Source of the DNA: Candidatus Pacearchaeota archaeon
GTDB taxonomy: Archaea > Nanobdellota > Nanobdellia > Pacearchaeales > GW2011-AR1
DNA length: 64,000 nucleotides
NCBI GenBank assembly: GCA_041659445.1
Contig: JBAZYG010000001.1
Location: forward strand, 381,624 to 445,623
Direction of reading: 5' to 3'
Below the pieces are notes generated by a model. That model was not told the DNA's origin, searched no databases, and saw nothing but the letters and a program-made list of their open reading frames with translations. Below are positions 36,370 through 50,482 of the stretch, one piece after another (positions within the stretch are counted from its first letter, which is position 1; every line of letters begins with the position of its first letter). The position numbers were made by a program, and so were the translations under genes.

Positions 36370-36422
36370 ATTATATTTTCAAGAATATATATCTTTAAAA
36401 ATTCATTAAATTCTTTAAATGG

Positions 36423-36731
36423 ATGAACAACATTGATGAATTTTTGGAAGATGGTTTTAAAATAAGAGAATATGAAAACAATTTATCAAAAATTATATCT
36501 GAAATAAAAAGAGAATGTGAAGTTCAAAAAGAAGAAGATTTTGATTACAAAGAGCATATAGAAATATCTGTTAACGTCTTAAAAACATTTCTAGAAGGAT
36601 ATAAAAAATTAATAGAAAAATATCCTGATTCAAAATTTATTAAAAATAGAAAAAAATATTTATATTTTTTTGCAAAGAAAAACTTACCTAAAGAAGTATA
36701 TAAAGAGGTTTATGAAAATGAACAACATTGA
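36423..36731 (+). CDS. small protein, copy 1 of a tandemly triplicated family (starts MNNIDE, ends YENEQH)
   Basis: 102 aa; paralogous to the next two genes along its length. Confidence 0.5.
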   Translation: MNNIDEFLEDGFKIREYENNLSKIISEIKRECEVQKEEDFDYKEHIEISVNVLKTFLEGYKKLIEKYPDSKFIKNRKKYLYFFAKKNLPKEVYKEVYENEQH

Positions 36732-37014
36732 TGAAATCTTAGAGGATGGTAGAAAAATTTATTTATTGATGGAAAATTCATTATATTTTGCTGAATTAAT
36801 AATGAATGAAAGGAAATATATTGAAATTCTTCCTAAGGAAAAAGAAGGTTATAGAATGACCTTAAAAAATAACTGGAAAAGATTTCAGGAATTTTCAGAA
36901 AAATACCCTAATTCTGAATTTGTTAAGGAAACAGTTGAAAGAATTCTTAATTCAGCGAAAGAAGATTTACCAGAAGAAGTATACAAGGAGATTTATGAAA
37001 ATGAACAACATTGA
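36718..37014 (+). CDS. small protein, copy 2 of the triplicated family; start trimmed to MNNIDE
   Basis: Track ORF 36670..37014 begins in the upstream copy; the nucleotide string tatgaaaatgaacaacattgatgaa encodes both YENEQH* of copy 1 and (MK)MNNIDE of copy 2 in shifted frames. Confidence 0.5.
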   Translation: MNNIDEILEDGRKIYLLMENSLYFAELIMNERKYIEILPKEKEGYRMTLKNNWKRFQEFSEKYPNSEFVKETVERILNSAKEDLPEEVYKEIYENEQH

Positions 37015-37291
37015 TGAAATCTTGAAAGATGGAATTAGTGCTCATTATATTGGAAGGGATTCTTTAGAAGATATTTCAAAAATAAGAGAATACTCAAAAT
37101 TTCCAGATAAATTATGGAAAATCGGAGATTACAAAAAAAGATTAGTTAGTTATTGGAAAGGTTTGCAAGATTTAGCTAAAAAATACCCAGATTCTGAAGT
37201 TATTAAAGAACAAACTGAAATAATTCTTAACTCGGCAAAAGAATATCTACCCGAAAATATATATAAAGAAATTTATGAATCAGAAAAATAA
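37001..37291 (+). CDS. small protein, copy 3 of the triplicated family; start trimmed to MNNIDE
   Basis: Same overlap architecture with copy 2; C-terminus diverged (YESEK). Confidence 0.5.
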   Translation: MNNIDEILKDGISAHYIGRDSLEDISKIREYSKFPDKLWKIGDYKKRLVSYWKGLQDLAKKYPDSEVIKEQTEIILNSAKEYLPENIYKEIYESEK

Positions 37292-37330
37292 ATTCAAAAC
37301 ATTTATTAATAGACATTTTCTAAAAACATC

Positions 37331-37980: not shown

Positions 37981-37991
37981 TTGCAATTTAT

Positions 37992-38075
37992 GCGGGGGTG
38001 CCGGAGTGGTCAAACGGGCTGGACTTAAGATCCAGTAGCTTAGTGCTTGCGCAGGTCCGAATCCTGTCCCTCGCA
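37992..38075 (+). tRNA. tRNA-Leu (anticodon TAA), type II
   Basis: Acceptor GCGGGGG/CCCTCGC, anticodon stem CTGGA/TCCAG with loop CTTAAGA, long variable arm TAGCTTAGTGCTTGC, T-arm GCAGG-TCCGAAT-CCTGT, discriminator A. Confidence 0.8.
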
Positions 38076-38123
38076 TTTTGATAGGATGAGAACCAAGCCT
38101 AAAAAAATATTTAGATTTTTGCC

Positions 38124-38150
38124 CGCAGGTCCGAATCCTGTCCCTCGCAT
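38124..38150 (+). repeat. 27-nt perfect direct repeat of the tRNA-Leu 3' end (T-arm plus acceptor 3' strand)
   Basis: cgcaggtccgaatcctgtccctcgcat occurs at 38050..38076 (inside the tRNA) and again at 38124..38150, 47 bp downstream. Confidence 0.75.
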
Positions 38151-38151
38151 A

Positions 38152-38223
38152 GCCATTACGCATAGGCTTCGCGAGACACTGAATGAAAAAGCCATTACCC
38201 ATAGGCTTCGCGAGACACTGAAT
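38152..38223 (+). repeat. tandem repeat, 2 x 33 nt separated by gaaaaa (one mismatch)
   Basis: gccattacGcataggcttcgcgagacactgaat / gccattacCcataggcttcgcgagacactgaat; contains the palindromic core tcgcga; followed by two copies of aattgcctctg at about 38237 and 38295. Confidence 0.7.
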
Positions 38224-39546: not shown

Positions 39547-41310
39547 ATGGAAGCAAAAAAATACCTTTTTCCAGTAATGATTTTATTAAGTTTATTTTTG
39601 ATTTGCTTTGTTAGTTCTGCCACAGAATTAACAATGTTTCATGTAAATTCTGTAGAAGATAATTCTAGTTTTATAGATGACTCTTATGCAATGGATATGC
39701 AAAATGATTTCTTATATATTGGGGGCAATGTTCAAGGCTTTCAAATTGTTGATGTTTCTGATTCTGCAAATCCAGTTGTAACAGGATACTTGAATACTTT
39801 AAACGGAATAATTGATTTAAAAGTCCAAGGAAATTATGTTTATGCTGTTTCTCTTACTAGTCCTAGTGACTTGAATATAATTGACATTTCTGATTCTGCA
39901 AATCCTGTAATTACAAACACAGTTACTTTAAACGGACAAGCTTCTGGAATAGATGTTGATTCTTTAGAAAGTTATGCTTATGTAGTTTATTCTGATAATT
40001 CAAATTTGGAAATAGTAAATCTTAGTGATAATTCAATAATAACTCCTTCATATGATTTAACAACAACTGCAAATGATATTTTAGTTGATGGAAATTATGC
40101 TTATGTTGTTTCAAGTGCTTCTGAATTAAAAATTTTAGATATTACTGATTTATCAAGCATTACTCAAGTTTCAATTTTAACAGATGACGGCACAACAGCA
40201 TTGAATGGGGCTTGGTCAATTTTCAAAGAAGGAAATTACTTATATATTTTATCTTCAGAGGGTTTTGAAATAATTAACGTCTCTGACCCTTTAACTCCAA
40301 CTTTAATGAAAGCAGTTTACAAAACAGATGCAATTTTAAACAACCACGATGTTAACGGAATTTTTGTAAAAAATAATATGGTCTATCTTTCATTAACCTC
40401 TCCAACACAAGGAATTGTAGAAGAAATTTCTCTTTTAGGAATCCTTACTGTTGTTCCCCCATCACAAATTTTTTTAATAATTGATTCAAGCACATCAAAT
40501 AACATTTTATTAGATACTCCTCGTGAAATAATTGTAAATGGAAATTACGCTTTTGTAACATCCTCAGATTTAATATTAACAAAAACTGGATTGGAAGTTA
40601 TAGGTATTGATGATTATACTCCTGTAATTGAAATTATTGCTCCAACTAATGCTACAACAATTTACCATAATGTTACAGCAGGTGCATTGAGTTTTGAATT
40701 TAAAGCAAAAATAACAGATGATTTTTCTGGAATAAAAAATGTAATATTTTCATTAAAAACACCAAATGGAGTGATTACAAATTATCCTTTAACTTCTCTT
40801 GGAAATGATGAATATTCTGCAATTGTTTCATTGACTGCTTATGGAACTTATGAAGCAAGTTTTGAAGCAAATGATTTTGCAACAAGAGGAAAAACAGAAT
40901 ATACTACATTTACTATATCTGAACCTGTTGTATCTTCAGGTGGTGGTGGCGGTGGTGGAGGTTCTTGTTCATATAATATAAATTATGATTGGAAATGTTC
41001 TAGTTGGGGTGAATGTGTTGATGGAACTCAAACAAGAACTTGTAATAATTTAAATAATTGTGGAAGCACTTATGGAAGACCAGACACAGAACAAACATGT
41101 ATTATTGAAATAATTCCTGAAACTGTGAACAACGCAACTGAAACAAATACTGCCGAGGGTGGAAGAGGATTAACAGGTGCAGTTATTGGTGGAACTTCAA
41201 GAGTATTTAGTTCTCCTTGGTTATACATACCGTTATTAGTTTTTGCAATTCTAATCGCTGGGTGGTTGTTGTTAGGATTATTCAGAAAGAAAGACAAAAA
41301 GAAAAAATAA
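39547..41310 (+). CDS. secreted cell-surface protein with LVIVD-like beta-propeller repeats, a Gly8 linker and a C-terminal TM anchor
   Basis: Signal peptide; recurring GNY[AVL]Y[VI][VL]S and I[IV]D[IV]SD..NP repeat units; GGGGGGGGS linker; C-terminal PWLYIPLLVFAILIAGWLLLGLF plus RKKDKKKK. Confidence 0.5.
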   Translation: MEAKKYLFPVMILLSLFLICFVSSATELTMFHVNSVEDNSSFIDDSYAMDMQNDFLYIGGNVQGFQIVDVSDSANPVVTGYLNTLNGIIDLKVQGNYVYAVSLTSPSDLNIIDISDSANPVITNTVTLNGQASGIDVDSLESYAYVVYSDNSNLEIVNLSDNSIITPSYDLTTTANDILVDGNYAYVVSSASELKILDITDLSSITQVSILTDDGTTALNGAWSIFKEGNYLYILSSEGFEIINVSDPLTPTLMKAVYKTDAILNNHDVNGIFVKNNMVYLSLTSPTQGIVEEISLLGILTVVPPSQIFLIIDSSTSNNILLDTPREIIVNGNYAFVTSSDLILTKTGLEVIGIDDYTPVIEIIAPTNATTIYHNVTAGALSFEFKAKITDDFSGIKNVIFSLKTPNGVITNYPLTSLGNDEYSAIVSLTAYGTYEASFEANDFATRGKTEYTTFTISEPVVSSGGGGGGGGSCSYNINYDWKCSSWGECVDGTQTRTCNNLNNCGSTYGRPDTEQTCIIEIIPETVNNATETNTAEGGRGLTGAVIGGTSRVFSSPWLYIPLLVFAILIAGWLLLGLFRKKDKKKK

Positions 41311-41369
41311 AAATAAATTTTCTTGATGATTATTATACTAGAACATATATATTGGAGTATATAGATTAA

Positions 41370-42131
41370 TTATTTATTTTTCAGAATTTCTTGAATCTTG
41401 TTTTTAAAATCTTCAATATTCATTTTTTTAATGTCGCTCTCCCATAACCTAATAACTTTAAATCCTTTTTCTTGTAATTCATTTGTCCTCACATTATCTA
41501 TTTCTCTACCTAAAGGATATTTGTGCCAATAATTTCCATCAACTTCTATTATTAAATTTAAATTTGAAATTAAAATATCACATTGATAACCATGCTCAAT
41601 TTCTTTTATATATTTATGAGTAATAAATTCTATATTTAATTGCTTTAAAAAATTTTGAATTTTAATTTCTGGTTTAGAATCTTTTAAAGGAAAAATTTGT
41701 TTAATCCTTTGATTTTTAATTTTTAAGATTGTCTCTTTTGAATGATGTTTTCCAAACATAGGATGTTTTTCTCCAGAAATTTCAGGAATTTTCTTTCCTT
41801 TATTCCATACATTTTCTCCTTCAAATCTTTTCTTTTGAGAAATACTCATTTTTTTTCTTACTTCTGAACTTAATAAAGTTTTCATTAAAGATATTTTTTG
41901 TTTTTCTATTGTTTCCTTAGAAGGATGCTTTCCAGTCATCCAAGAAGGTTTACCTGTTTTTTTACCTTTATTGCTGGGAACACTACCTTTCTTAAAAATA
42001 CCTTTAAATCCACTCGGAAAATATTTTTTATATTCTTCCCCTTTTAATCCTTTATTCCAAGGTATACTGCCTTTTTTGAATTCTGTTTTTGAAGAAGAAC
42101 GTTCTCCTTTCTTGAATTTAGTATCTATCAT
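41370..42131 (-). CDS. homing-endonuclease-like protein with N-terminal NUMOD3-type DNA-binding repeats and a C-terminal Vsr/DUF559-like PD-(D/E)xK nuclease domain
   Basis: Repeats FKKGSIPWNKGLKG, FKKGSVPSNKGKK, GKHPSKETIEKQKIS, GKHHSKETILKIKNQ (the G-K-H-x-S-x-E-T-x-x-K-I motif of NUMOD3); C-terminal YQCDILISNLNLIIEVDGNYWHKYP...VIRLWESDI resembles the DUF559/Vsr endonuclease core. Confidence 0.6.
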   Translation of the reverse strand: MIDTKFKKGERSSSKTEFKKGSIPWNKGLKGEEYKKYFPSGFKGIFKKGSVPSNKGKKTGKPSWMTGKHPSKETIEKQKISLMKTLLSSEVRKKMSISQKKRFEGENVWNKGKKIPEISGEKHPMFGKHHSKETILKIKNQRIKQIFPLKDSKPEIKIQNFLKQLNIEFITHKYIKEIEHGYQCDILISNLNLIIEVDGNYWHKYPLGREIDNVRTNELQEKGFKVIRLWESDIKKMNIEDFKNKIQEILKNK

Positions 42132-42241
42132 AAAGAATCAAAGAACCTTGAATTTATAATTTTTCTTAAATTTAAAATAAAACTAAACTACATCCCAACA
42201 ATCTTAATAAATAAGAAAATCTAATTTTAAATAGAATAAAA

Positions 42242-42655
42242 ATGGAACCTCAAAAAACTGAAATTTCAGGAGATAGATTGGGAGATATTGAAACTTTTGT
42301 AAGAATAAAAAGTATTCTTATTGATTTTCTGAGAGGGTATCCTGCATGGAAATATTATGGAATTTTTGAATCTTATTTTAACCCCGAAATAGCAAAGGAA
42401 ATTATTGAACAATTAAAGCAGGATGAAATCATAAAACTTTGGGAATTAGATGTAAAGGGCAAAAAAGTTATTGGTTATTCACTTACTGGTAAAGGTGCTC
42501 AACTTGCTTCTTCTTTGAGAACACATTTTGGGATAGTTAAATTAAATAAGGTCATAATTAGATTAACAAAAATATTGGGTATCCTTGCAGGAATGACAAT
42601 CCTCGTTGGTTTAGCTCAATATATTTTATTTTATACACAATTTCCTTTGTTTTAA
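42242..42655 (+). CDS. hypothetical protein with a C-terminal TM helix (137 aa)
   Basis: Complete ORF; C-terminal ILGILAGMTILVGLAQYILF. Confidence 0.4.
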   Translation: MEPQKTEISGDRLGDIETFVRIKSILIDFLRGYPAWKYYGIFESYFNPEIAKEIIEQLKQDEIIKLWELDVKGKKVIGYSLTGKGAQLASSLRTHFGIVKLNKVIIRLTKILGILAGMTILVGLAQYILFYTQFPLF

Positions 42656-42710
42656 CTTCCCCTTCTCCCAACATCGCAAAACTTAAATACTCAAAACATA
42701 TTGGTTTTTT

Positions 42711-42974
42711 GTAGACTAGATCGGCAGGTTAGCCCCCTGCTCATGTGCAAACGGGCTTTATGGCAGACTACGAGTGGAGTGTGATTGAGAAGTCAGGAAG
42801 TCTTTAATCTAACGTTGACGTTTTGTCCGCTTTGATCTTGTAGATGCAAAACGGGTCAGGCCTTGATCGGAGCAGCCCTAAACATGTATTAAGGTGCTTA
42901 GCGGGTCACAAAATCGAGAAGGATTAAGGGTAAGCTTTTTGGTTTTTCTTGAGCTGTCCACTTTGTCTACACTT
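42711..42974 (+). ncRNA. candidate signal recognition particle (7S/SRP) RNA
   Basis: About 260-nt island visibly GC-enriched relative to the AT-rich flanks and free of ORFs; contains GGGU-CAGG-CC-(uugauc)-GG-AGCA-GCCC, which reproduces the SRP helix-8 architecture (symmetric CAGG/AGCA loop, the SRP54 M-domain site, flanked by paired GGGU/GCCC and CC/GG); 5' GUAGAC and 3' GUCUAC ends are complementary. Confidence 0.55.
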
Positions 42975-42990
42975 ATTTTTTATAAGAAAA

Positions 42991-43206
42991 TTAATAGTTA
43001 TAAAAATTATTACATTGATATGGTGGAGAATAAACTCTTTTTTCTATTGGTTTAATGGGATATTGTTTGATTAATTTCATTGATTCCTCTAATTTTTTAA
43101 GTTCTTTTTCTGCTTTTTTCCATCTTTCACAATTTCCTAATTGTTTATCAAGATTTGTCATTTTATTTTCCAAAATAATCTCTTGCACAAACAAGACCAT
43201 AAACAA
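42991..43206 (-). CDS. hypothetical small ORF; possibly the 3' part of a frameshifted gene
   Basis: Overlaps the upstream ORF 43163..43372 by 44 nt in another frame. Confidence 0.2.
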   Translation of the reverse strand: MFMVLFVQEIILENKMTNLDKQLGNCERWKKAEKELKKLEESMKLIKQYPIKPIEKRVYSPPYQCNNFYNY

Positions 43207-43372
43207 TTTTGTTTTTCCAGGTTTCTGGTTTTAAATTGAACTCTAATTTTTCTCTAAAAGTCATATTTGAAGTATCTAAAGCAACTTCCAAAGAAGTTTT
43301 GTCCAAAGCTGAATTAATTGTTTTTTCGTCTTTTAATCTTCCAAGATAAAGGTATTGGTTTTTGTCTGTCAT
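43163..43372 (-). CDS. hypothetical small ORF; possibly the 5' part of a frameshifted gene
   Basis: See previous. Confidence 0.2.
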   Translation of the reverse strand: MTDKNQYLYLGRLKDEKTINSALDKTSLEVALDTSNMTFREKLEFNLKPETWKNKIVYGLVCARDYFGK

Positions 43373-43373
43373 T

Positions 43374-43838
43374 TTAACTTATTTTAATTTTTTCCAAAAA
43401 AATATTATAAAAAGAAACCAATGCATTTGATTCTTCTGTGAAAGGAAAAATTACACAAGTTCCTGCATCACACCGTCTATTTTCCCAAGTTCCTTCATAA
43501 AATTTAGTATCTTCCACTCCAAACTTCCAAATTAGATTGTAATTTAAGATAACTTCAGAGCCACCATTTTTTATTGCTTGCTTATTATATTTTTTTCTAA
43601 AATTAAAGCTTTTTTTATCATTTAATGCTCCAAAAAATTCTGCTTCTCCAAATTTATCGATTAATGTTCCTTTTAATTTTTTTCCATTTTGCTCTATAAT
43701 TTTCCCAAAGAAAATGCTACTATCTCTTCCAAGTTCATAATTCCAAAATCCATAAAAGTCGGGTTTTTCATTATTCATATTTTGAAAAACAAAATACAAT
43801 TTAAAAATATAATTATACTTCAAAATATACTTCTTCAC
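43374..43838 (-). CDS. hypothetical protein (154 aa)
   Basis: Complete ORF; no motif recognised. Confidence 0.35.
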   Translation of the reverse strand: MKKYILKYNYIFKLYFVFQNMNNEKPDFYGFWNYELGRDSSIFFGKIIEQNGKKLKGTLIDKFGEAEFFGALNDKKSFNFRKKYNKQAIKNGGSEVILNYNLIWKFGVEDTKFYEGTWENRRCDAGTCVIFPFTEESNALVSFYNIFLEKIKIS

Positions 43839-43871
43839 AATATTAATAAACTTATTTTTTGTATTTATTAT

Positions 43872-44408
43872 ATGAAAAAAAGAGGAAAGGGCGGTCAGTT
43901 TTATCTTGTTGCTGCAATGATTGTTATTGCAGTTATTATTGGAATTTCTTCAATTTCAAATTACTCAAACAAATCAAAAGCAGACAAAGAAATGAAAAAT
44001 TTTGAACAAGAATTAAACACTGAAGTTGAAAAAAATTTAGAATACATAAGTTTGAATTCTTTATCAGACAGTTCAACAAAAAATCTTTGGATAAATCTTA
44101 CAGATAACTATATTACAAAATTAGGAAAAAACAAAGAATCAATTTTTATTTTTGGAACAAAATCACAAATAACTGTCAAAGGATACAAACTGAATAATTC
44201 AAATGATTTGCAAATTAACGTCGGAAGTGGTGTTGAAAGTTTAGCAAGTTCAGAAGGAGAATTTGAAAGGGATTTTAATCCGAGTGTTGAAAACGTGACA
44301 ATTATAAAAGAAAATATTGAATATGTTTTTGATTTAAAGCAAGGACAAAATTTTTATTATCTGATTTCCAAAGAATATAATTCAGAGAGAATAATTATAA
44401 GAAACTAA
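43872..44408 (+). CDS. pilin-like protein with an archaeal class III signal peptide (start trimmed to MKKRGKGGQ)
   Basis: The track ORF starts upstream, but MKKRGKGGQFYLVAAMIVIAVIIGISS is a textbook prepilin-type N-terminus (basic residues, G, then a hydrophobic helix). Confidence 0.55.
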   Translation: MKKRGKGGQFYLVAAMIVIAVIIGISSISNYSNKSKADKEMKNFEQELNTEVEKNLEYISLNSLSDSSTKNLWINLTDNYITKLGKNKESIFIFGTKSQITVKGYKLNNSNDLQINVGSGVESLASSEGEFERDFNPSVENVTIIKENIEYVFDLKQGQNFYYLISKEYNSERIIIRN

Positions 44409-44409
44409 C

Positions 44410-44928
44410 ATGAAAAATAAAAAAGGTGTGAGCGTGATGATTGGTTATGTTTTGCTAGTTGCATTAGTAGTAGTCATGGCTGGAATAGTTTATGTTTATT
44501 TGAGAACTTATATTCCAAAAGACTTGCCTGCATGCCCTGAAGAAACTTCATTATTCATAAAAGAAAAATCTTGCTCAAACGGAATTTTAAATATAACTAT
44601 AAAAAATAATGGCAAATTCAGCGTCGGAGGTTATTATATTTATGCTTCAAATGTTTCAAGTGCAGAAATTGCAACAATAGATTTGTCAAAGCAATTAAAT
44701 TCTGGAATTGATAATCAATATACTTATTTCAATTCTGTAATTTTTAATATAAGCACTAACAATACTCTTGATCCTGGAAATGAAATTATAAATAGTTTTG
44801 ATTTAAATCAATCAATAAATTTCATTGAAATAATTCCTGCGAGGTTTGAATCACAAGGAAAAAATGTCAAATTAGTTAGTTGTGGAAATTCAAGAATAAA
44901 AGAAATTGTAACTTGCTTGATTGTATAA
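44410..44928 (+). CDS. pilin-like protein (class III signal peptide)
   Basis: MKNKKGVSVMIGYVLLVALVVVMAGIVYVYL. Confidence 0.55.
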   Translation: MKNKKGVSVMIGYVLLVALVVVMAGIVYVYLRTYIPKDLPACPEETSLFIKEKSCSNGILNITIKNNGKFSVGGYYIYASNVSSAEIATIDLSKQLNSGIDNQYTYFNSVIFNISTNNTLDPGNEIINSFDLNQSINFIEIIPARFESQGKNVKLVSCGNSRIKEIVTCLIV

Positions 44929-44959
44929 TATTTAAAAATATAGAAGATTTAGAATAAAA

Positions 44960-45418
44960 ATGAACAAAAGAGGTTTGTCATCAGTTATTGCAACAATGCT
45001 TTTAATTACAATAACAATTGTCATTGCATTAATTGTATTTTTATGGTTTAGAGGAATTCAAGAAGAAGCAATTACAAAATTCGACGGAGTTAATGTAAAA
45101 GTAATCTGCGATGAAGTTCAATTTGATGCAGATTATTCTAATGGAGCAATGTATATTGTTAATACAGGAGATGTTCCAATTTATAAAATGGAAATAAAAG
45201 AAGTTGGTGAAGGATATTATGAAACACAAACTCTTGAAAATAATTGGCCAGAATTAGGATTGACACAAGGTGGAGCTTTTCAAGGAAATTATGCTCCTTT
45301 AGGTGAATCTTATTCTATAGAAAGAATTGTTTTAATTCCTGTTTTAATTGGCCACACTGAACAAGGAGATACAATCTATACATGCGATGAAAAAAATGGT
45401 TATGAAATAATTTTATAA
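44960..45418 (+). CDS. pilin-like protein (class III signal peptide)
   Basis: MNKRGLSSVIATMLLITITIVIALIVFLWF. Confidence 0.6.
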   Translation: MNKRGLSSVIATMLLITITIVIALIVFLWFRGIQEEAITKFDGVNVKVICDEVQFDADYSNGAMYIVNTGDVPIYKMEIKEVGEGYYETQTLENNWPELGLTQGGAFQGNYAPLGESYSIERIVLIPVLIGHTEQGDTIYTCDEKNGYEIIL

Positions 45419-45419
45419 A

Positions 45420-45914
45420 ATGAAAAATAAAAAGGCATTATCTCAAGTTGTTTCAATAATGATCATTCTTCTTTTAGTTTTTGCTGTTGGTGGAATTGTT
45501 TTTGTTTTTGTAAAAAATTTTGCAAATAAAAACCTCAATAAAACAAGTTCTTGTTACAACATTTACGAAAAAATTACATTAAATAATGATTTTACTTGTT
45601 ATAATTCAACTGGGCAATATGTTCAATTTTCAATTTCTAGAAAAGAAATAGAATTAGACTCTTTAATAATTTCAATCACATTCGAGGAAAATTCAAAAAC
45701 TTATTCTTTGACAAATCTTTCACAAAATGTTAGTGGATTAAGTTCTTCTCTAAATGGTGAATTTGCTGTCAATCTTCCTGGAGAAAATAGTGGAAAACCA
45801 TATTATGCAACAAACATTACTGAGCAACCTTTAACAATTGAAATTGCTCCAATAATTAACAATCATAATTGCAACAAGATTGACGAAATTTTAGATATTC
45901 CTATTTGTTTTTGA
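45420..45914 (+). CDS. pilin-like protein (class III signal peptide)
   Basis: MKNKKALSQVVSIMIILLLVFAVGGIVFVFV. Confidence 0.55.
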   Translation: MKNKKALSQVVSIMIILLLVFAVGGIVFVFVKNFANKNLNKTSSCYNIYEKITLNNDFTCYNSTGQYVQFSISRKEIELDSLIISITFEENSKTYSLTNLSQNVSGLSSSLNGEFAVNLPGENSGKPYYATNITEQPLTIEIAPIINNHNCNKIDEILDIPICF

Positions 45915-45961
45915 ATATTAAACATTAACTATTTAAATAAAAAATAATTCTTTATTAGGAG

Positions 45962-46486
45962 ATGGTGATAACAAAAAAAGCACAAGTTTGGATTGAAACA
46001 GTAACTTATATTTTAATTGCATTTGCATTAATTGGTTTAATTTTAGCATTTGCAAGACCAAAAATTCAGGAATACCAAGACAAATCAATTCTAGAGCAGT
46101 CATCAAAAATGATGAAAGTCTTAGACGAAACAATAAGAGAAGTTGGTAATGAAGCTGTTGGAAATAAAAGAAATATTGATTTAAGAGTTCGAAAAGGAAC
46201 TTTGGAAATTAATCCGCAAAATAATACTCTGACTTTTATTATGGATAGTAAATATATTTATAGCGAATTGGGAAAAACAATATCTGAAGAAAATTTATTT
46301 GTTACAACAACTGCTAAAGGAAAGTTTAATGAAGTTAAAATGTATTTAAATTACACTGGAGAATATGACTTACTTCAAAATAATTTAACAGAAACAAAAA
46401 TACTTACAACATCGTCAACAGATTATGATTTATATATTTCAAACAAAGGAGGTTCACCAATACAAATAGATATTGAAATAGATTAA
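45962..46486 (+). CDS. pilus/archaellum accessory protein with an N-terminal TM anchor (FlaF/FlaG-like position)
   Basis: VWIETVTYILIAFALIGLILAFA then a soluble beta-rich domain; sits immediately upstream of the ATPase. Confidence 0.4.
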   Translation: MVITKKAQVWIETVTYILIAFALIGLILAFARPKIQEYQDKSILEQSSKMMKVLDETIREVGNEAVGNKRNIDLRVRKGTLEINPQNNTLTFIMDSKYIYSELGKTISEENLFVTTTAKGKFNEVKMYLNYTGEYDLLQNNLTETKILTTSSTDYDLYISNKGGSPIQIDIEID

Positions 46487-46487
46487 A

Positions 46488-48047
46488 ATGCCAACAAAAA
46501 GAATAGGAATTCAAGATTATCCTCAAGTTGCTATTGATTTTTCACCAAGAATTCCAAAATTAAAAAAACAACGAGACAAATCTAAAATAAATGTAAGATA
46601 TTGTTTAATTTCTCCTTTCACATATGTCCATATTTATTGGAATCCAGAAGATTATGAAGTTGCATATGATATAGAAGAACCAATTTTAGATAAAAATGAA
46701 ACAAGATACCTTGAGCAAATTATTTCTGCAATGAAAGATATGATTGATTTTAATGAAATTATTCGAAAAAGCAAAGATTCATTGTTTGAATATATTGATA
46801 AAAGATTTAAAATATTGGCAATTGAATTAGGTTTAGATATTTCTTATGAAAGTTATAAAAAATTATTTTATTATTTATGCAGAGATTTTGTTGGATTTAA
46901 TGAAGTAGAACCTTTATTGAGAGATTATTTTGTCGAGGATATAGAATGTAATGGAGCAAACACTCCTATTTATATTGTTCACAGAGTTTTTAGAAATTTA
47001 AGAACAAACATTAAATTTGAAAGTAATTCAAGATTGGAAAGTTTTGTAGAAAAACTTGCACAAAGATGTGGAAAGTATATTTCATATGCAAAACCAATTT
47101 TAGATGCAAGTTTGCCAGATGGTTCAAGAGTTAATGCAACTTATACAAAAGATATTACAAGTAAAGGACCAACTTTTACAATTAGAAAATTCACTAAAAA
47201 ACCATGGACACCTCCTCAATTAGTTGCATTTAATACTTTAAGTCCTGAAATGCTTGCTTATTTATGGTTACTTGTCGAATATAAAATGAACGTTCTTATT
47301 ATTGGGGGAACGGCCTCAGGTAAAACCACTTTGTTAAATGCTATTGCGTTTTTTATTCCACCAGAAGCAAGAGTTGTAAGTATTGAAGATACTCGTGAAT
47401 TAAATTTACCTAGGGAAAACTGGTTGCCAAGTGTTTCGCGTTCTGCTATTGGAATTGGAAACATGGGTGAAATTGATTTGTATGATTTACTTAAAAGTTC
47501 ATTCAGACAAAATCCAGATTATGTAATTGTTGGTGAAGTTAGAGGTAAAGAAGCAAGTGTTTTATTTCAGGGAATGGCTTCAGGACACTCATCTATTAGT
47601 ACAATCCACGCTGATTCTGTTGAAACAGTTATAAAAAGATTAGAAACTCCTCCTATTGAACTTTCTCCAACTCTGTTAAATGTTCTAGACAGTGTTTGTA
47701 TTATGACTCATGCAATTGTAAATAAACAAGAAACAAGAAAATTAAGGGAAATTGTTGAAATTGTAAATGTAACTCCAGACGGAATAGCGTTAACAAATAC
47801 CCCGTTTAAATGGAATTCAAGAGAAGATGTATTTTATTTTAAAAAAGAAAGTAAATTATTTGAAAAAATTTCCAAAAGGTATGGTATAACAACAGAAGAA
47901 TTAGTTAAAGAATTTCAATTAAGAACAATTTTATTATATAAAATGTATGAAAATAAAATATTTGATTTTGACGATGTTCAAACAATCATAAATGAATATT
48001 ATAAAAGACCTGACGAAGTTTTAAAAAAATTTCAAGTAATTAAATAA
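46488..48047 (+). CDS. type IV pilus/archaellum-family secretion ATPase (FlaI/PilB/TadA/VirB11 superfamily)
   Basis: Walker A VLIIGGTASGKTTLLNAIAFFIP, SIEDTRELNL (Asp box), Walker B DYVIVGEVRGKEA, His box SSISTIHADS. Confidence 0.8.
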   Translation: MPTKRIGIQDYPQVAIDFSPRIPKLKKQRDKSKINVRYCLISPFTYVHIYWNPEDYEVAYDIEEPILDKNETRYLEQIISAMKDMIDFNEIIRKSKDSLFEYIDKRFKILAIELGLDISYESYKKLFYYLCRDFVGFNEVEPLLRDYFVEDIECNGANTPIYIVHRVFRNLRTNIKFESNSRLESFVEKLAQRCGKYISYAKPILDASLPDGSRVNATYTKDITSKGPTFTIRKFTKKPWTPPQLVAFNTLSPEMLAYLWLLVEYKMNVLIIGGTASGKTTLLNAIAFFIPPEARVVSIEDTRELNLPRENWLPSVSRSAIGIGNMGEIDLYDLLKSSFRQNPDYVIVGEVRGKEASVLFQGMASGHSSISTIHADSVETVIKRLETPPIELSPTLLNVLDSVCIMTHAIVNKQETRKLREIVEIVNVTPDGIALTNTPFKWNSREDVFYFKKESKLFEKISKRYGITTEELVKEFQLRTILLYKMYENKIFDFDDVQTIINEYYKRPDEVLKKFQVIK

Positions 48048-48103
48048 AATGAAAAAACTAAAAATAAATTTGGGTAAACTTCATTTTTCAAAAAACCAAT
48101 AAA

Positions 48104-48268
48104 ATGAGAAAAGAGGAAATACTTTACTTAGGACAATTATTTGAAATTCTTGAGGATAAAATAAAAAGATTAAAAGAATCATACGAAAATAAAGAAGTTC
48201 TAAAATTTAATTCTTTAAAAAAGGAAATAATTCAAATCCATGAAAAAATATCTGAAACAATAAAATGA
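48104..48268 (+). CDS. small coiled-coil protein (54 aa), below ORF-track cutoff
   Basis: Hand translation MRKEEILYLGQLFEILEDKIKRLKESYENKEVLKFNSLKKEIIQIHEKISETIK*; its stop overlaps the ATG of the next gene (atgA). Confidence 0.25.
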   Translation: MRKEEILYLGQLFEILEDKIKRLKESYENKEVLKFNSLKKEIIQIHEKISETIK

Positions 48269-49623
48269 TTAAAAAAAAAGAATATCCCTTTGAAAAAATA
48301 CAGAATTTGATTGAAAAACAAAATAAATTATTAGAAGAACTAAAAAAATTTTCTTTTGAAATGTATCGAAACAAATATGGTGAATCTGAAAAAACAATGA
48401 TTTCTCAAAGGATGGACAAAATAAAAGATACAATAAAACTTCAGAACAATCAATTAATAGAAGAAATAAAAGGAATAAACCTTGCAAAAGAACTTGGCCT
48501 ACCTGAAGAAGTAATAAAAACCACTCCTAAGAACTTTTTAAACTCAAAGCCTAAAGAAAGTGCATACGAGGATAGAGAAGATGAATCTTTGAAATTTAAA
48601 GGAGGAAAAATTTACAATACTAAAGAATTGTCTGTGAAAGGCCTTGAAAAAGAAACAATAGTAAGATTGAGAGAAGCAAAGAAAAAAGTTGAAAAAATTA
48701 AACACGAAAAAATAAAAACAAAATCAAAATATTCAGAACTCTCAAGTAAATTATTCTCAAAGGTTTCAAAAAAACTTTTAGGAAATGAATCTTTTAAAAA
48801 ATTACAGGAAAATTTGATTAAAGCAAATTTAGATTATTCTCCTACAGGATATATTTCTTTTATTTTATTTACTACTTTGATTTCAGTTTTTGTATCTATT
48901 TTTGTTATGCTTTTTTTCTTGTTTTTTAATATCGAGGCAATTTCACCATTTATAACAAGAACTAGCGAAGAAGTTTTAATTCGTCTTGGAAAAGTAATTT
49001 GGATTGTTATAGTTGCTCCAGTCGGAACTTTTTTCACATTATATTTTTATCCTAGTCTTGAAAAAAAATCAGCAGAATATAAGATAGACACAGAATTACC
49101 TTTTGCAACAATTCATATGGCTGCTATCGCAGGTTCGATGATAAACCCTGTAAAAATATTTGAAATTTTAATAACAACCAAAGAATATAAAGCTCTTGAA
49201 AAAGAATTTACAAAATTATTAAATGAAATAAATATTTATGGTTCAGATTTGGTTAATGCTTTAAAAAATACTGCAAAAAATACTTCTAGTAAAAGACTTT
49301 CAGAATTATTAAACGGATTATCTACAAATATAAGTTCTGGTGGAGACTTGCCGAGTTTTTTTGAAAAGAGATCTGAAACTTTATTATTTGAATACAGAAT
49401 TCAGAGGGAAAAAGCAACAAGAGGTGCAGAAAGTTTTATGAATATTTATATAAGCATGGCAATCGCATCTCCAATGATTTTAATGCTCTTATTAATGATG
49501 TTGAAGTTAAGTGGTCTTGGATTAAGTACTCCTGCATCAACACTAACTTTAATTATGGTACTTGGAGTTGTTGTGCTTAATGCTGTTTTAATAACTTTTT
49601 TGCACTTAAAAAAACAAAAATAA
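48265..49623 (+). CDS. pilus assembly platform membrane protein, FlaJ/TadC/PilC-like (first half)
   Basis: Cytoplasmic coiled-coil N-terminal domain, then a TM block with a T2SS-F-like organisation; adjacent to the ATPase as in archaeal pilus/archaellum operons. Confidence 0.5.
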   Translation: MIKKKEYPFEKIQNLIEKQNKLLEELKKFSFEMYRNKYGESEKTMISQRMDKIKDTIKLQNNQLIEEIKGINLAKELGLPEEVIKTTPKNFLNSKPKESAYEDREDESLKFKGGKIYNTKELSVKGLEKETIVRLREAKKKVEKIKHEKIKTKSKYSELSSKLFSKVSKKLLGNESFKKLQENLIKANLDYSPTGYISFILFTTLISVFVSIFVMLFFLFFNIEAISPFITRTSEEVLIRLGKVIWIVIVAPVGTFFTLYFYPSLEKKSAEYKIDTELPFATIHMAAIAGSMINPVKIFEILITTKEYKALEKEFTKLLNEINIYGSDLVNALKNTAKNTSSKRLSELLNGLSTNISSGGDLPSFFEKRSETLLFEYRIQREKATRGAESFMNIYISMAIASPMILMLLLMMLKLSGLGLSTPASTLTLIMVLGVVVLNAVLITFLHLKKQK

Positions 49624-49624
49624 A

Positions 49625-50482
49625 ATGGAACTAAAAAAAATACATTTAATCTCTGCATTAGTAGCGTTTGCATTAATTGCAATTGGATATTTTTTAGCAA
49701 GTAAAAAACTTTTTCCTTTAATTGCTGGAATTGGTGCATTAATTGGATTTGCTCCGTTTTTAATTACATTAATGAAAGAAATTAAAACTGCTTCTGAAAA
49801 AGAAGAAATGTTTTTGGAATTTGCTAGAAATCTCGTCGAGAGTGTTAAAACAGGAACTCCAATAAGTAAAAGTATTGTAAACATGAGCAATAAAAATTAT
49901 GGTGCCTTAACAGAGCATATTCAAAAACTAGCAAATCAAATTTCGTTAGGTATTCCCTTAAATAAAGCCTTGGATGTTTTTTCAAAAGATGTAAAAAATA
50001 AATCTATTTCACGTTCATTAACTTTAATTGGACAAGCAGAAAGAGCTGGAGGAGAAATTGGAGAAATACTTGAATCTGTTGCAGGAGCTGTTAGCATTTC
50101 AGATAAATTAAAAAAAGAAAGAAAAGCTTCAATCTCTACATTAGTTTCTCAAGGATATATTATTTTCTTGGTTTTTATTGTAATAATTTTAGTTATGCAA
50201 TATCAAATAATTCCAATGGTTTCTGGAATAGCAAATGTCCAAGATTTGGGGTTAGCGGGTTTTGGAGTTTCAAAAGTTAGTAATTATCAACAAGTTGAGC
50301 AAAGACAAATTTCAAATTCATTTTTGTATTTAATTTTAACACAAGGCTTTTGCGCAGGACTTGTTATTGGTAAAATTTCAGAAGGAAGCATTAAAGCAGG
50401 AATTAAACATTCTTTTTCCTTAATGTTTTTGTCTTTCTTAATATCTGCAATAGCAAATGCTTTGTTATCTAAAGGAGGATAA
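49625..50482 (+). CDS. pilus assembly platform membrane protein, FlaJ/TadC-like (second half)
   Basis: N-terminal TM pair, cytoplasmic helical domain (LANQISLGIPLNKALD... resembles the T2SS-F domain), C-terminal TM block; 1 nt after the previous stop. Confidence 0.5.
   Translation: MELKKIHLISALVAFALIAIGYFLASKKLFPLIAGIGALIGFAPFLITLMKEIKTASEKEEMFLEFARNLVESVKTGTPISKSIVNMSNKNYGALTEHIQKLANQISLGIPLNKALDVFSKDVKNKSISRSLTLIGQAERAGGEIGEILESVAGAVSISDKLKKERKASISTLVSQGYIIFLVFIVIILVMQYQIIPMVSGIANVQDLGLAGFGVSKVSNYQQVEQRQISNSFLYLILTQGFCAGLVIGKISEGSIKAGIKHSFSLMFLSFLISAIANALLSKGG

Follow-up and report, generated by a model that had tools for sequence, protein, structure and literature searches.

A probable free-standing homing endonuclease gene of the EDxHD/Vsr-like family, with an N-terminal NUMOD3 array, in the chromosome of a DPANN archaeon

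What kind of gene lies on the upstream side of the signal recognition particle (SRP) RNA gene in a Candidatus Pacearchaeota archaeon, and how did it come to be there? The question is raised by a 64,000-nucleotide (nt) stretch of assembly GCA_041659445.1 (contig JBAZYG010000001.1, positions 381,624 to 445,623 of the forward strand; hereafter the window), in which an open reading frame (ORF) at 41370..42131 on the minus strand, with an ATG start and a TAA stop, encodes a protein of 253 amino acids (aa). An earlier note on this DNA, which delimited the ORF exactly, read it as a selfish, mobile nuclease gene homing or hitchhiking near conserved RNA genes. Our analysis upholds the first half of that reading, the gene being of homing-endonuclease type, free-standing and not conserved in synteny, and does not uphold the second. 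It is probably a horizontally acquired, free-standing homing endonuclease gene of the EDxHD/Vsr-like family. Both the family and its architecture are known; what is new is a further member, equipped with a NUMOD3 array and carried on the chromosome of a DPANN archaeon.

The domain content of the protein supports this assignment. The basic repeats of the N-terminal part and the nuclease-like core of the C-terminal part that the earlier note had quoted are both present. Among the Pfam families it had named, NUMOD3 (PF07460) scored 34.7 bits against a cut-off of 20.4, in three stretches N-terminal to the nuclease, and DUF559 (PF04480) scored 36.6 bits against a cut-off of 20.6 over aa 180-250, whereas Vsr (PF03852) stayed below its cut-off. 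MTES_1575 and the PvuRts1I-like model matched below theirs as well. The protein matches PHROG 3339, "homing endonuclease" (8e-14). In PADLOC its sole meaningful match is the homing endonuclease model "HEase" (2.9e-7), and the defence-component models gave no other significant match, only one 15-bit partial one.

The C-terminal domain (aa 148-250; 41382..41690, minus strand), delimited by Pfam, alignment to I-Bth0305I, Foldseek and AlphaFold, is predicted to adopt a Vsr-like fold, and its nearest solved structure is that of I-Bth0305I. The top match among all PDB sequences was 3R3P (E 1.6e-5 with the single sequence, 8.8e-7 with a family profile), the catalytic domain of I-Bth0305I, an enzyme that is the prototype of the EDxHD homing endonuclease family (PMC3239194). 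In an AlphaFold model (mean predicted local distance difference test score 71) the nuclease domain lies mostly at 80-96, and a Foldseek search of the PDB with this model again returned 3r3p first (E 1.4e-5, template modelling score 0.74-0.75 on the target), followed by Escherichia coli Vsr (1vsr; E 6.5e-4).

Candidate active-site residues in this domain are E155, D185, E196, D198, H203 and D212. In the alignment to I-Bth0305I, D185, H203 and D212 are the equivalents of D196, H213 and D222, and E155 and E196 fall on conserved Glu residues; D198, in turn, stands where I-Bth0305I has N208. Metal-binding and general-base roles have been given to the active-site residues of I-Bth0305I (PMC3239194). 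A 33-sequence family alignment shows no variation at any of the candidate residues, those of the core quoted in the earlier note (D185, E196, D198, H203 and D212) included. The same is true of Y201/W202, the equivalents of the intercalating residues Phe67/Trp68 of Vsr (PMC2677866). The zinc site of Vsr has no counterpart in the sequence of the domain, in which C184 is the only Cys and no CxHxC-type cluster follows H203; it is likewise absent from I-Bth0305I (PMC3239194).

The N-terminal region (aa 1-145; 41697..42131, minus strand) is a basic DNA-binding region made of FKKG/WNKG turns and NUMOD3 helices, as recognized by Pfam, motifs and AlphaFold. FKKG occurs at aa 6, 18 and 46, WNKG or WMTG at aa 25, 64 and 109, and GKHxSKET at aa 67 and 127, where it belongs to the NUMOD3 helices of type GKHxSKETIxKxK; a third helix spans aa 89-107. 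The AlphaFold model places helices at 72-84, 89-107 and 132-144 and is of low confidence elsewhere in the region. Homologues in the 33-sequence alignment differ widely in the number and arrangement of these repeats.

NUMOD3 modules are extended DNA-binding units of GIY-YIG and HNH phage homing endonucleases (I-TevI, I-HmuI, Seg/Mob). The window protein has these DNA-binding modules in common with them, as well as the free-standing selfish lifestyle that is seen in phage genomes. It differs from them in its catalytic domain and in the order of its parts, the NUMODs of those enzymes being C-terminal.

N-terminal NUMODs followed by a C-terminal Vsr-like nuclease are the mark of EDxHD endonucleases, which are found in introns, in split inteins and free-standing (PMC3239194, PMC2677866). 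The nuclease domain of I-Bth0305I matches the same Pfam models in the same order as the window protein, with DUF559 above cut-off at 31.8 bits. Therefore, the combination of NUMOD and DUF559/Vsr-like domains is the published EDxHD architecture. The two proteins are nevertheless far apart, with only ~24% identity in the nuclease domain, and two NUMOD2/helix-turn-helix (HTH) motifs in I-Bth0305I take the place of the NUMOD3 array. I-Bth0305I is also intron-encoded, its source being the recA group I intron of the Bacillus thuringiensis phage 0305phi8-36 (PMC3239194), whereas the window gene is a free-standing gene of an archaeal chromosome. At its site Rfam revealed neither a group I intron nor any other family.

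The combination was described in the earlier note as not a common one, a view that does not survive a wider search. An exhaustive scan of 1.84 billion cluster representatives returned 5,463 relatives at E≤1e-3, 1,781 at E≤1e-10 and 546 at E≤1e-30, and a word-indexed search returned 946, most of them with the NUMOD3 and DUF559 pair in their precomputed Pfam annotation. Across family copies the nuclease domain is 52-73% identical to that of the window protein, and the best non-self homologue is ~45-56% identical overall. No close relative is present in cultured phages, the isolated-phage database having given a single weak, unannotated match. Homologues that match only the nuclease domain (query aa ~130-250, 30-35% identity) are encoded in many Bacillaceae chromosomes (L020, L027, L030-L045 and others) and may represent a conserved host-side branch of the family.

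The closest copies in GTDB belong to metagenome-assembled genomes (MAGs) of Woesearchaeota, Pacearchaeota and Nanoarchaeota. They adjoin unrelated housekeeping genes, namely those for an intein-bearing GyrA, RuBisCO, DNA ligase, FtsZ, ArgRS and ribosomal protein L1, and no viral hallmarks were found around them. IMG/VR contains 287 stretches that code for a relative, with two or three copies on several contigs. The closest of these viral copies are surrounded by genes for a major head protein, portal, tail tube, tape measure, baseplate hub and Laminin_G_3 fibre-like proteins. A ranking by identity to the window protein intermingles viral with chromosomal copies, and AT-richness (25-37% GC) is common to the two sets.

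The clearest evidence of mobility comes from one precise viral intergenic site, between two tailed-virus structural genes, at which close relatives of the window gene are present in some genomes and absent from others. Seventeen related viral loci have in common a 230-aa gene followed by a 322-aa gene, the latter with 73-100% identity. The site is empty in 14 of the 17, with the two genes ~20-30 bp apart. Two others (L084 and L085) have an insert of ~640 bp exactly between the two genes, and this insert contains a family nuclease gene; over the nuclease domain, its product and the window protein are 66% identical. The last one (L298) has a different ORF of 183 aa (1381-1950) at the same site. 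A family copy also occurs in a second virus group (L092-94), this time directly upstream of a gene that is distantly homologous to the 322-aa one (22% identity, E 2e-6).

By eye, the 183-aa ORF of L298 has basic NUMOD3-like repeats and a Cys/His-rich, HNH-like C-terminus. Its identification as an HNH enzyme was dropped as unsupported, there being no Pfam or PDB match. Other selfish elements were noticed beside family copies. In L004 (2168-5989) and L096 (2320-5121) the neighbouring genes, GyrA in the case of L004, contain inteins with LAGLIDADG endonuclease domains, and two further neighbours in archaeal loci contain NUMOD3, so that several kinds of selfish nuclease cluster there. In addition, the same contig of ~24 kb appears both in a Pacearchaeota MAG (L010, JBEKXS010000003.1) and in IMG/VR (L091, 3300017938_000004); it is either a virus binned with its host or a cellular fragment called viral.

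Fixed-site presence and absence, observed here for close viral relatives, is also a trait of the "fractured gene" Vsr-like endonucleases. Together with phage Hef, these are free-standing and inserted between or within conserved genes, mainly in phages (PMC2677866, PMC3239194). Unlike the window gene, they interrupt DNA-metabolism genes at the position of split inteins and mostly have a hairpin at the 5' end (PMC2677866). The window gene is intergenic and sits in a cellular DPANN genome, and no hairpin was detected at its 5' end (fold z-score +1.26), unlike in published free-standing Vsr-like endonuclease genes.

Was the window copy itself acquired? The three assemblies that encode an identical protein are 99.98% identical to the window and thus amount to one population, and more distant relatives had to supply the comparison. 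A search for empty sites by way of orf137, the small gene between the nuclease gene and the SRP RNA gene, was given up, as the contigs with its homologues have no further neighbouring gene in common and lack a nearby SRP RNA. The SRP RNA was therefore used as the anchor. Its 21-nt helix-8 sequence retrieved 119 metagenomic loci, 117 of them with a homologous SRP RNA (median identity to the window 74%, maximum 89%). These loci have a downstream gene order in common, running from the SRP RNA through five pilin-like or small genes to a T2SSE ATPase gene (67-81% aa identity). Upstream of the RNA, the relatives often carry either an SNase-LTD gene or a surface-protein gene with the Cys-rich domain of the window's LVIVD-repeat protein. 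The upstream flank available was at least 1.4 kb in 60 loci, at least 2 kb in 44 and at least 3 kb in 33.

The nuclease gene was absent from all 60 informative loci, those with at least 1.4 kb of upstream flank. A profile hidden Markov model (HMM) of the nuclease domain found no family member in the 119 SRP loci even at E≤10, with the window as a control scoring 190 bits, and no orf137 homologue was found in them either. Presence or absence among relatives was the test proposed in the earlier note, which would have counted a universal gene in conserved synteny against mobility; the gene is not universal in this sense. In blastn comparisons with L284, L196, L178, L171 and L281, a segment of ~1.36 kb (41311..42667) that holds the nuclease gene and orf137 has no DNA counterpart in the nearest relatives, and is therefore specific to this lineage. 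Similarity resumes at 42668-42706, right after the orf137 stop codon and before the SRP RNA; to the left of the segment it reappears only inside surface-protein or SNase genes.

The slot that separates the SRP RNA from the surface-protein or SNase gene measures anywhere from ~40 bp to more than 2 kb in the relatives, and what fills it is highly varied (145 ORFs in 102 clusters). A ParE toxin is encoded there in L284, the closest informative relative, and Fic/DOC proteins in L280 and L249. More generally, the region upstream of the SRP RNA looks like a hot spot of gene turnover (L284, L280, L249 and ~55 other loci), where secreted proteins, a DEAD helicase and ArgRS were also seen. Given that the relatives are not close and that the slot is fluid, what the locus demonstrates is acquisition, not homing as such.

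The proposal that the gene homes or hitchhikes near conserved RNA genes fared worse. A tRNA occurs within 1 kb of the nuclease gene in only one of the 158 family loci, where ~6 would be expected from their tRNA density, and SRP RNA-like sequence was detected in none of the 158 by single-sequence nhmmer and blastn, searches of limited sensitivity. An association of the family with tRNA or SRP RNA genes was rejected on these counts. Nor is the gene "immediately upstream" of the SRP RNA. Between its start codon and the RNA are 577 bp, which include orf137, and transcription of the gene proceeds away from the RNA. Changes in the window SRP RNA that might confer self-immunity were also considered and rejected, as it differs from the ≥90% consensus at only 2 positions. 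Taken together, the family loci, the SRP loci and the consensus comparison reveal no link, so that the proximity is a peculiarity of this copy. It does not point to the RNA gene as the target, even if the target could lie in that flank.

Several points weigh against the homing-endonuclease reading. The N-terminal modules are NUMOD3 and not the NUMOD2/HTH motifs described for I-Bth0305I. The enzymatic activity of the 253-aa protein is something we infer by analogy. The gene is single-copy, with no paralogue in the window; its composition is unremarkable (GC 24.9% against 27.1% for the window, no skew anomaly), on which ground an origin betrayed by foreign composition was rejected; no direct or inverted repeats above the AT-rich background flank it; and the insertion is not marked by a recognizable target site. 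No near-identical, strain-level genome without the gene was found, and the nearest informative relatives are fairly distant (74-89% identity in the SRP RNA, 67-81% in the T2SSE ATPase). Because the whole slot turns over in the relatives, the absence of the gene from them could reflect general gene flux rather than homing.

Some of these points would also fit an immobilized relic, a homing endonuclease gene that has ceased to move since its arrival, persists only because it is neutral or has yet to degrade, and may have lost specific cleavage. The single copy, the host-like composition and the lack of flanking repeats fit such a history, as do the lack of any sampled genome with a recognizable empty target and of a recently sampled donor, the best non-self homologue being as distant as it is. 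However, the ORF is full length and all catalytic and structural invariants of the family are intact, where decay would be expected to have altered some of them. We regard this explanation as possible but unlikely.

Domestication as a host nuclease, kept for its benefit to the host in defence, restriction or some other cellular role, is clearly less probable still. DUF559/Vsr-like domains do occur in restriction and defence proteins, and weak matches to PvuRts1I-like, ProA and PDC-S37 models were obtained. Accessory genes of the ParE and Fic type occupy the slot in relatives, and the nuclease domain is unusually well conserved across copies. Against this stand the PADLOC result, whose one meaningful match is a homing endonuclease model, the lack of any conserved partner gene, the absence of the gene from 60 of 60 relatives, and the behaviour of its close homologues as insertions in viral structural modules.

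Generic DUF559 proteins, such as NGO0050 (PDB 3HRL) and those of the E. coli YcjD type, share the Pfam family and a weak PDB match with the window protein. They are single-domain proteins of ~100-120 aa with no assigned role; the window protein has a DNA-binding array besides and is part of a clade in which insertion polymorphism can be demonstrated.

A true Vsr-type T:G mismatch nickase serving cytosine methylation is scarcely credible, for although the core fold and the catalytic Asp/His/Asp triad are those of E. coli Vsr (1VSR; D51, H69 and D97), and some homologues are labelled accordingly by JGI, the protein falls far short of the curated cut-offs for Vsr (PF03852, 13.8 against 27; TIGR00632, 26.3 against 97.85), the zinc site is missing, the NUMOD3 array is foreign to Vsr, the gene is not conserved in relatives, and its ten annotated neighbours offer no mismatch-repair context, with no DNA cytosine methyltransferase among them and one generic class I methyltransferase 6 kb away.

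A free-standing EDxHD homing endonuclease gene thus remains the preferred explanation, and I-Bth0305I suggests how its product would work. By analogy, the protein would dimerize through its nuclease domains, with Mg2+ bound by D185 and D212 and H203 acting as general base, and would cut both strands of a pseudo-palindromic core of ~14 bp to leave 2-nt 5' overhangs. The NUMOD3 array might lie along the flanking DNA, giving a long footprint of mostly non-specific contacts. Repair of the break in a copy-less genome from a copy-bearing template would then copy the gene across. Such a homing event, or else illegitimate recombination, is the most likely way in which the gene reached this lineage, and its source was plausibly a virus.

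A bolder proposal is that the NUMOD3-EDxHD clade forms a single pool moving between DPANN chromosomes and uncultured AT-rich head-tail viruses, and that the window copy homes into the SRP RNA flank, the variable NUMOD3 array setting the target and the nuclease core staying constant. We consider this unlikely as a whole. Were the shared pool real, the copies would serve as virus-host links for viruses of Pacearchaeota and Woesearchaeota. The clade may in any case help to link uncultured viruses to hosts, because viruses and DPANN hosts have it in common. That DPANN chromosomes and uncultured tailed viruses share the clade is the more interesting angle, and an unproven one.

The gene itself is well supported and fairly ordinary, and leaves the current understanding of homing endonucleases unchanged. 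It extends a family recorded chiefly in phages and bacteria by an example from a DPANN chromosome. Annotation could profit from it. The identical protein is deposited at NCBI, on a 486-kb contig, as [quoted passage not shown], and JGI names some homologues "very-short-patch-repair endonuclease"; both labels could become "EDxHD-family homing endonuclease". Engineers of DNA-targeting nucleases, too, could take an interest in the clade, which is large and pairs a NUMOD3 array that varies with a nuclease core that is very conserved.

Upstream of the nuclease gene, a TATA-like box, TTATAAAT (42152..42159, minus strand), was read from the sequence 21-28 nt before the ATG. It is a possible archaeal promoter for a leaderless or short-leader mRNA, a weak indication because the genome is AT-rich (27% GC). 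On the other side the gene converges, across a spacer of 59 bp, with a plus-strand gene for an LVIVD-repeat, Cys-rich surface protein (39547..41310; Pfam LVIVD 78.9 bits), which forms the left flank. It is the Cys-rich domain of this protein (aa 478-520) that recurs upstream of the SRP RNA in relatives.

The orf137 gene (42242..42655, plus strand), which is lineage-specific at this locus, is divergent from the nuclease gene, with a spacer of 110 bp, and encodes a 137-aa protein without family assignment, for which neither Pfam nor PADLOC gave a match. Only 5 non-self homologues were found (53-66% identity), all of them at unrelated loci. In L161-L164 a 130-aa homologue directly follows, with a 20-nt overlap, a transposase gene of the IS66/IS240-type DDE class, and orf137 may itself travel with mobile elements. 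By eye, its product has a winged-helix-like domain and a C-terminal membrane helix.

The SRP RNA gene (42709..42972, plus strand) had been listed as a candidate in the earlier note and proved to be real. It matches Rfam RF01857 (Archaea_SRP) over the full model (E 3.5e-18, 81 bits). The gathering score of 96.5 is not reached because the helix-6 hairpin is missing, but with such an E-value and 117 homologous loci of conserved synteny the match is, on sequence grounds, an SRP RNA in practice. It is ~264 nt long, as are ~100 related metagenomic SRP RNAs, and standard annotation would miss such genes. From it to 50482 (window 42709-50482) follow five small pilin-like or unknown genes, a T2SSE ATPase gene and genes for two T2SSF membrane proteins, a type IV pilus-like locus. 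This synteny is strongly conserved in relatives, as in L196, L226, L202 and L191, and the ATPase gene recurs across dozens of contigs. In L171 the SRP RNA 5' end (nt 3-30) recurs as a perfect 28-nt copy 66-93 bp upstream of the RNA, and this copy may be an integration scar at the RNA gene boundary; recurrent duplication of this kind was rejected, as it was seen in 1 of 98 loci.

At the other end of the region, the 3' end of tRNA-Leu(TAA) (38050-38076) is repeated exactly over 27 nt at 38124-38150 (region 37991-38223), and resembles an att-type scar of an integration or excision event. The earlier note had linked this scar to the nuclease gene. The duplicate, however, is just 74 bp away from the tRNA and leaves the nuclease gene outside, so an integrated element bounded by the repeat was rejected. 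The repeat is followed by two near-identical 34-nt copies (38151-38184 and 38190-38223). Further upstream, at 36377-37312, a tandem array of four repeats (period ~280-295 bp; 60-83% identity over 78 nt) matches a row of small paralogous ORFs (36423-37291).

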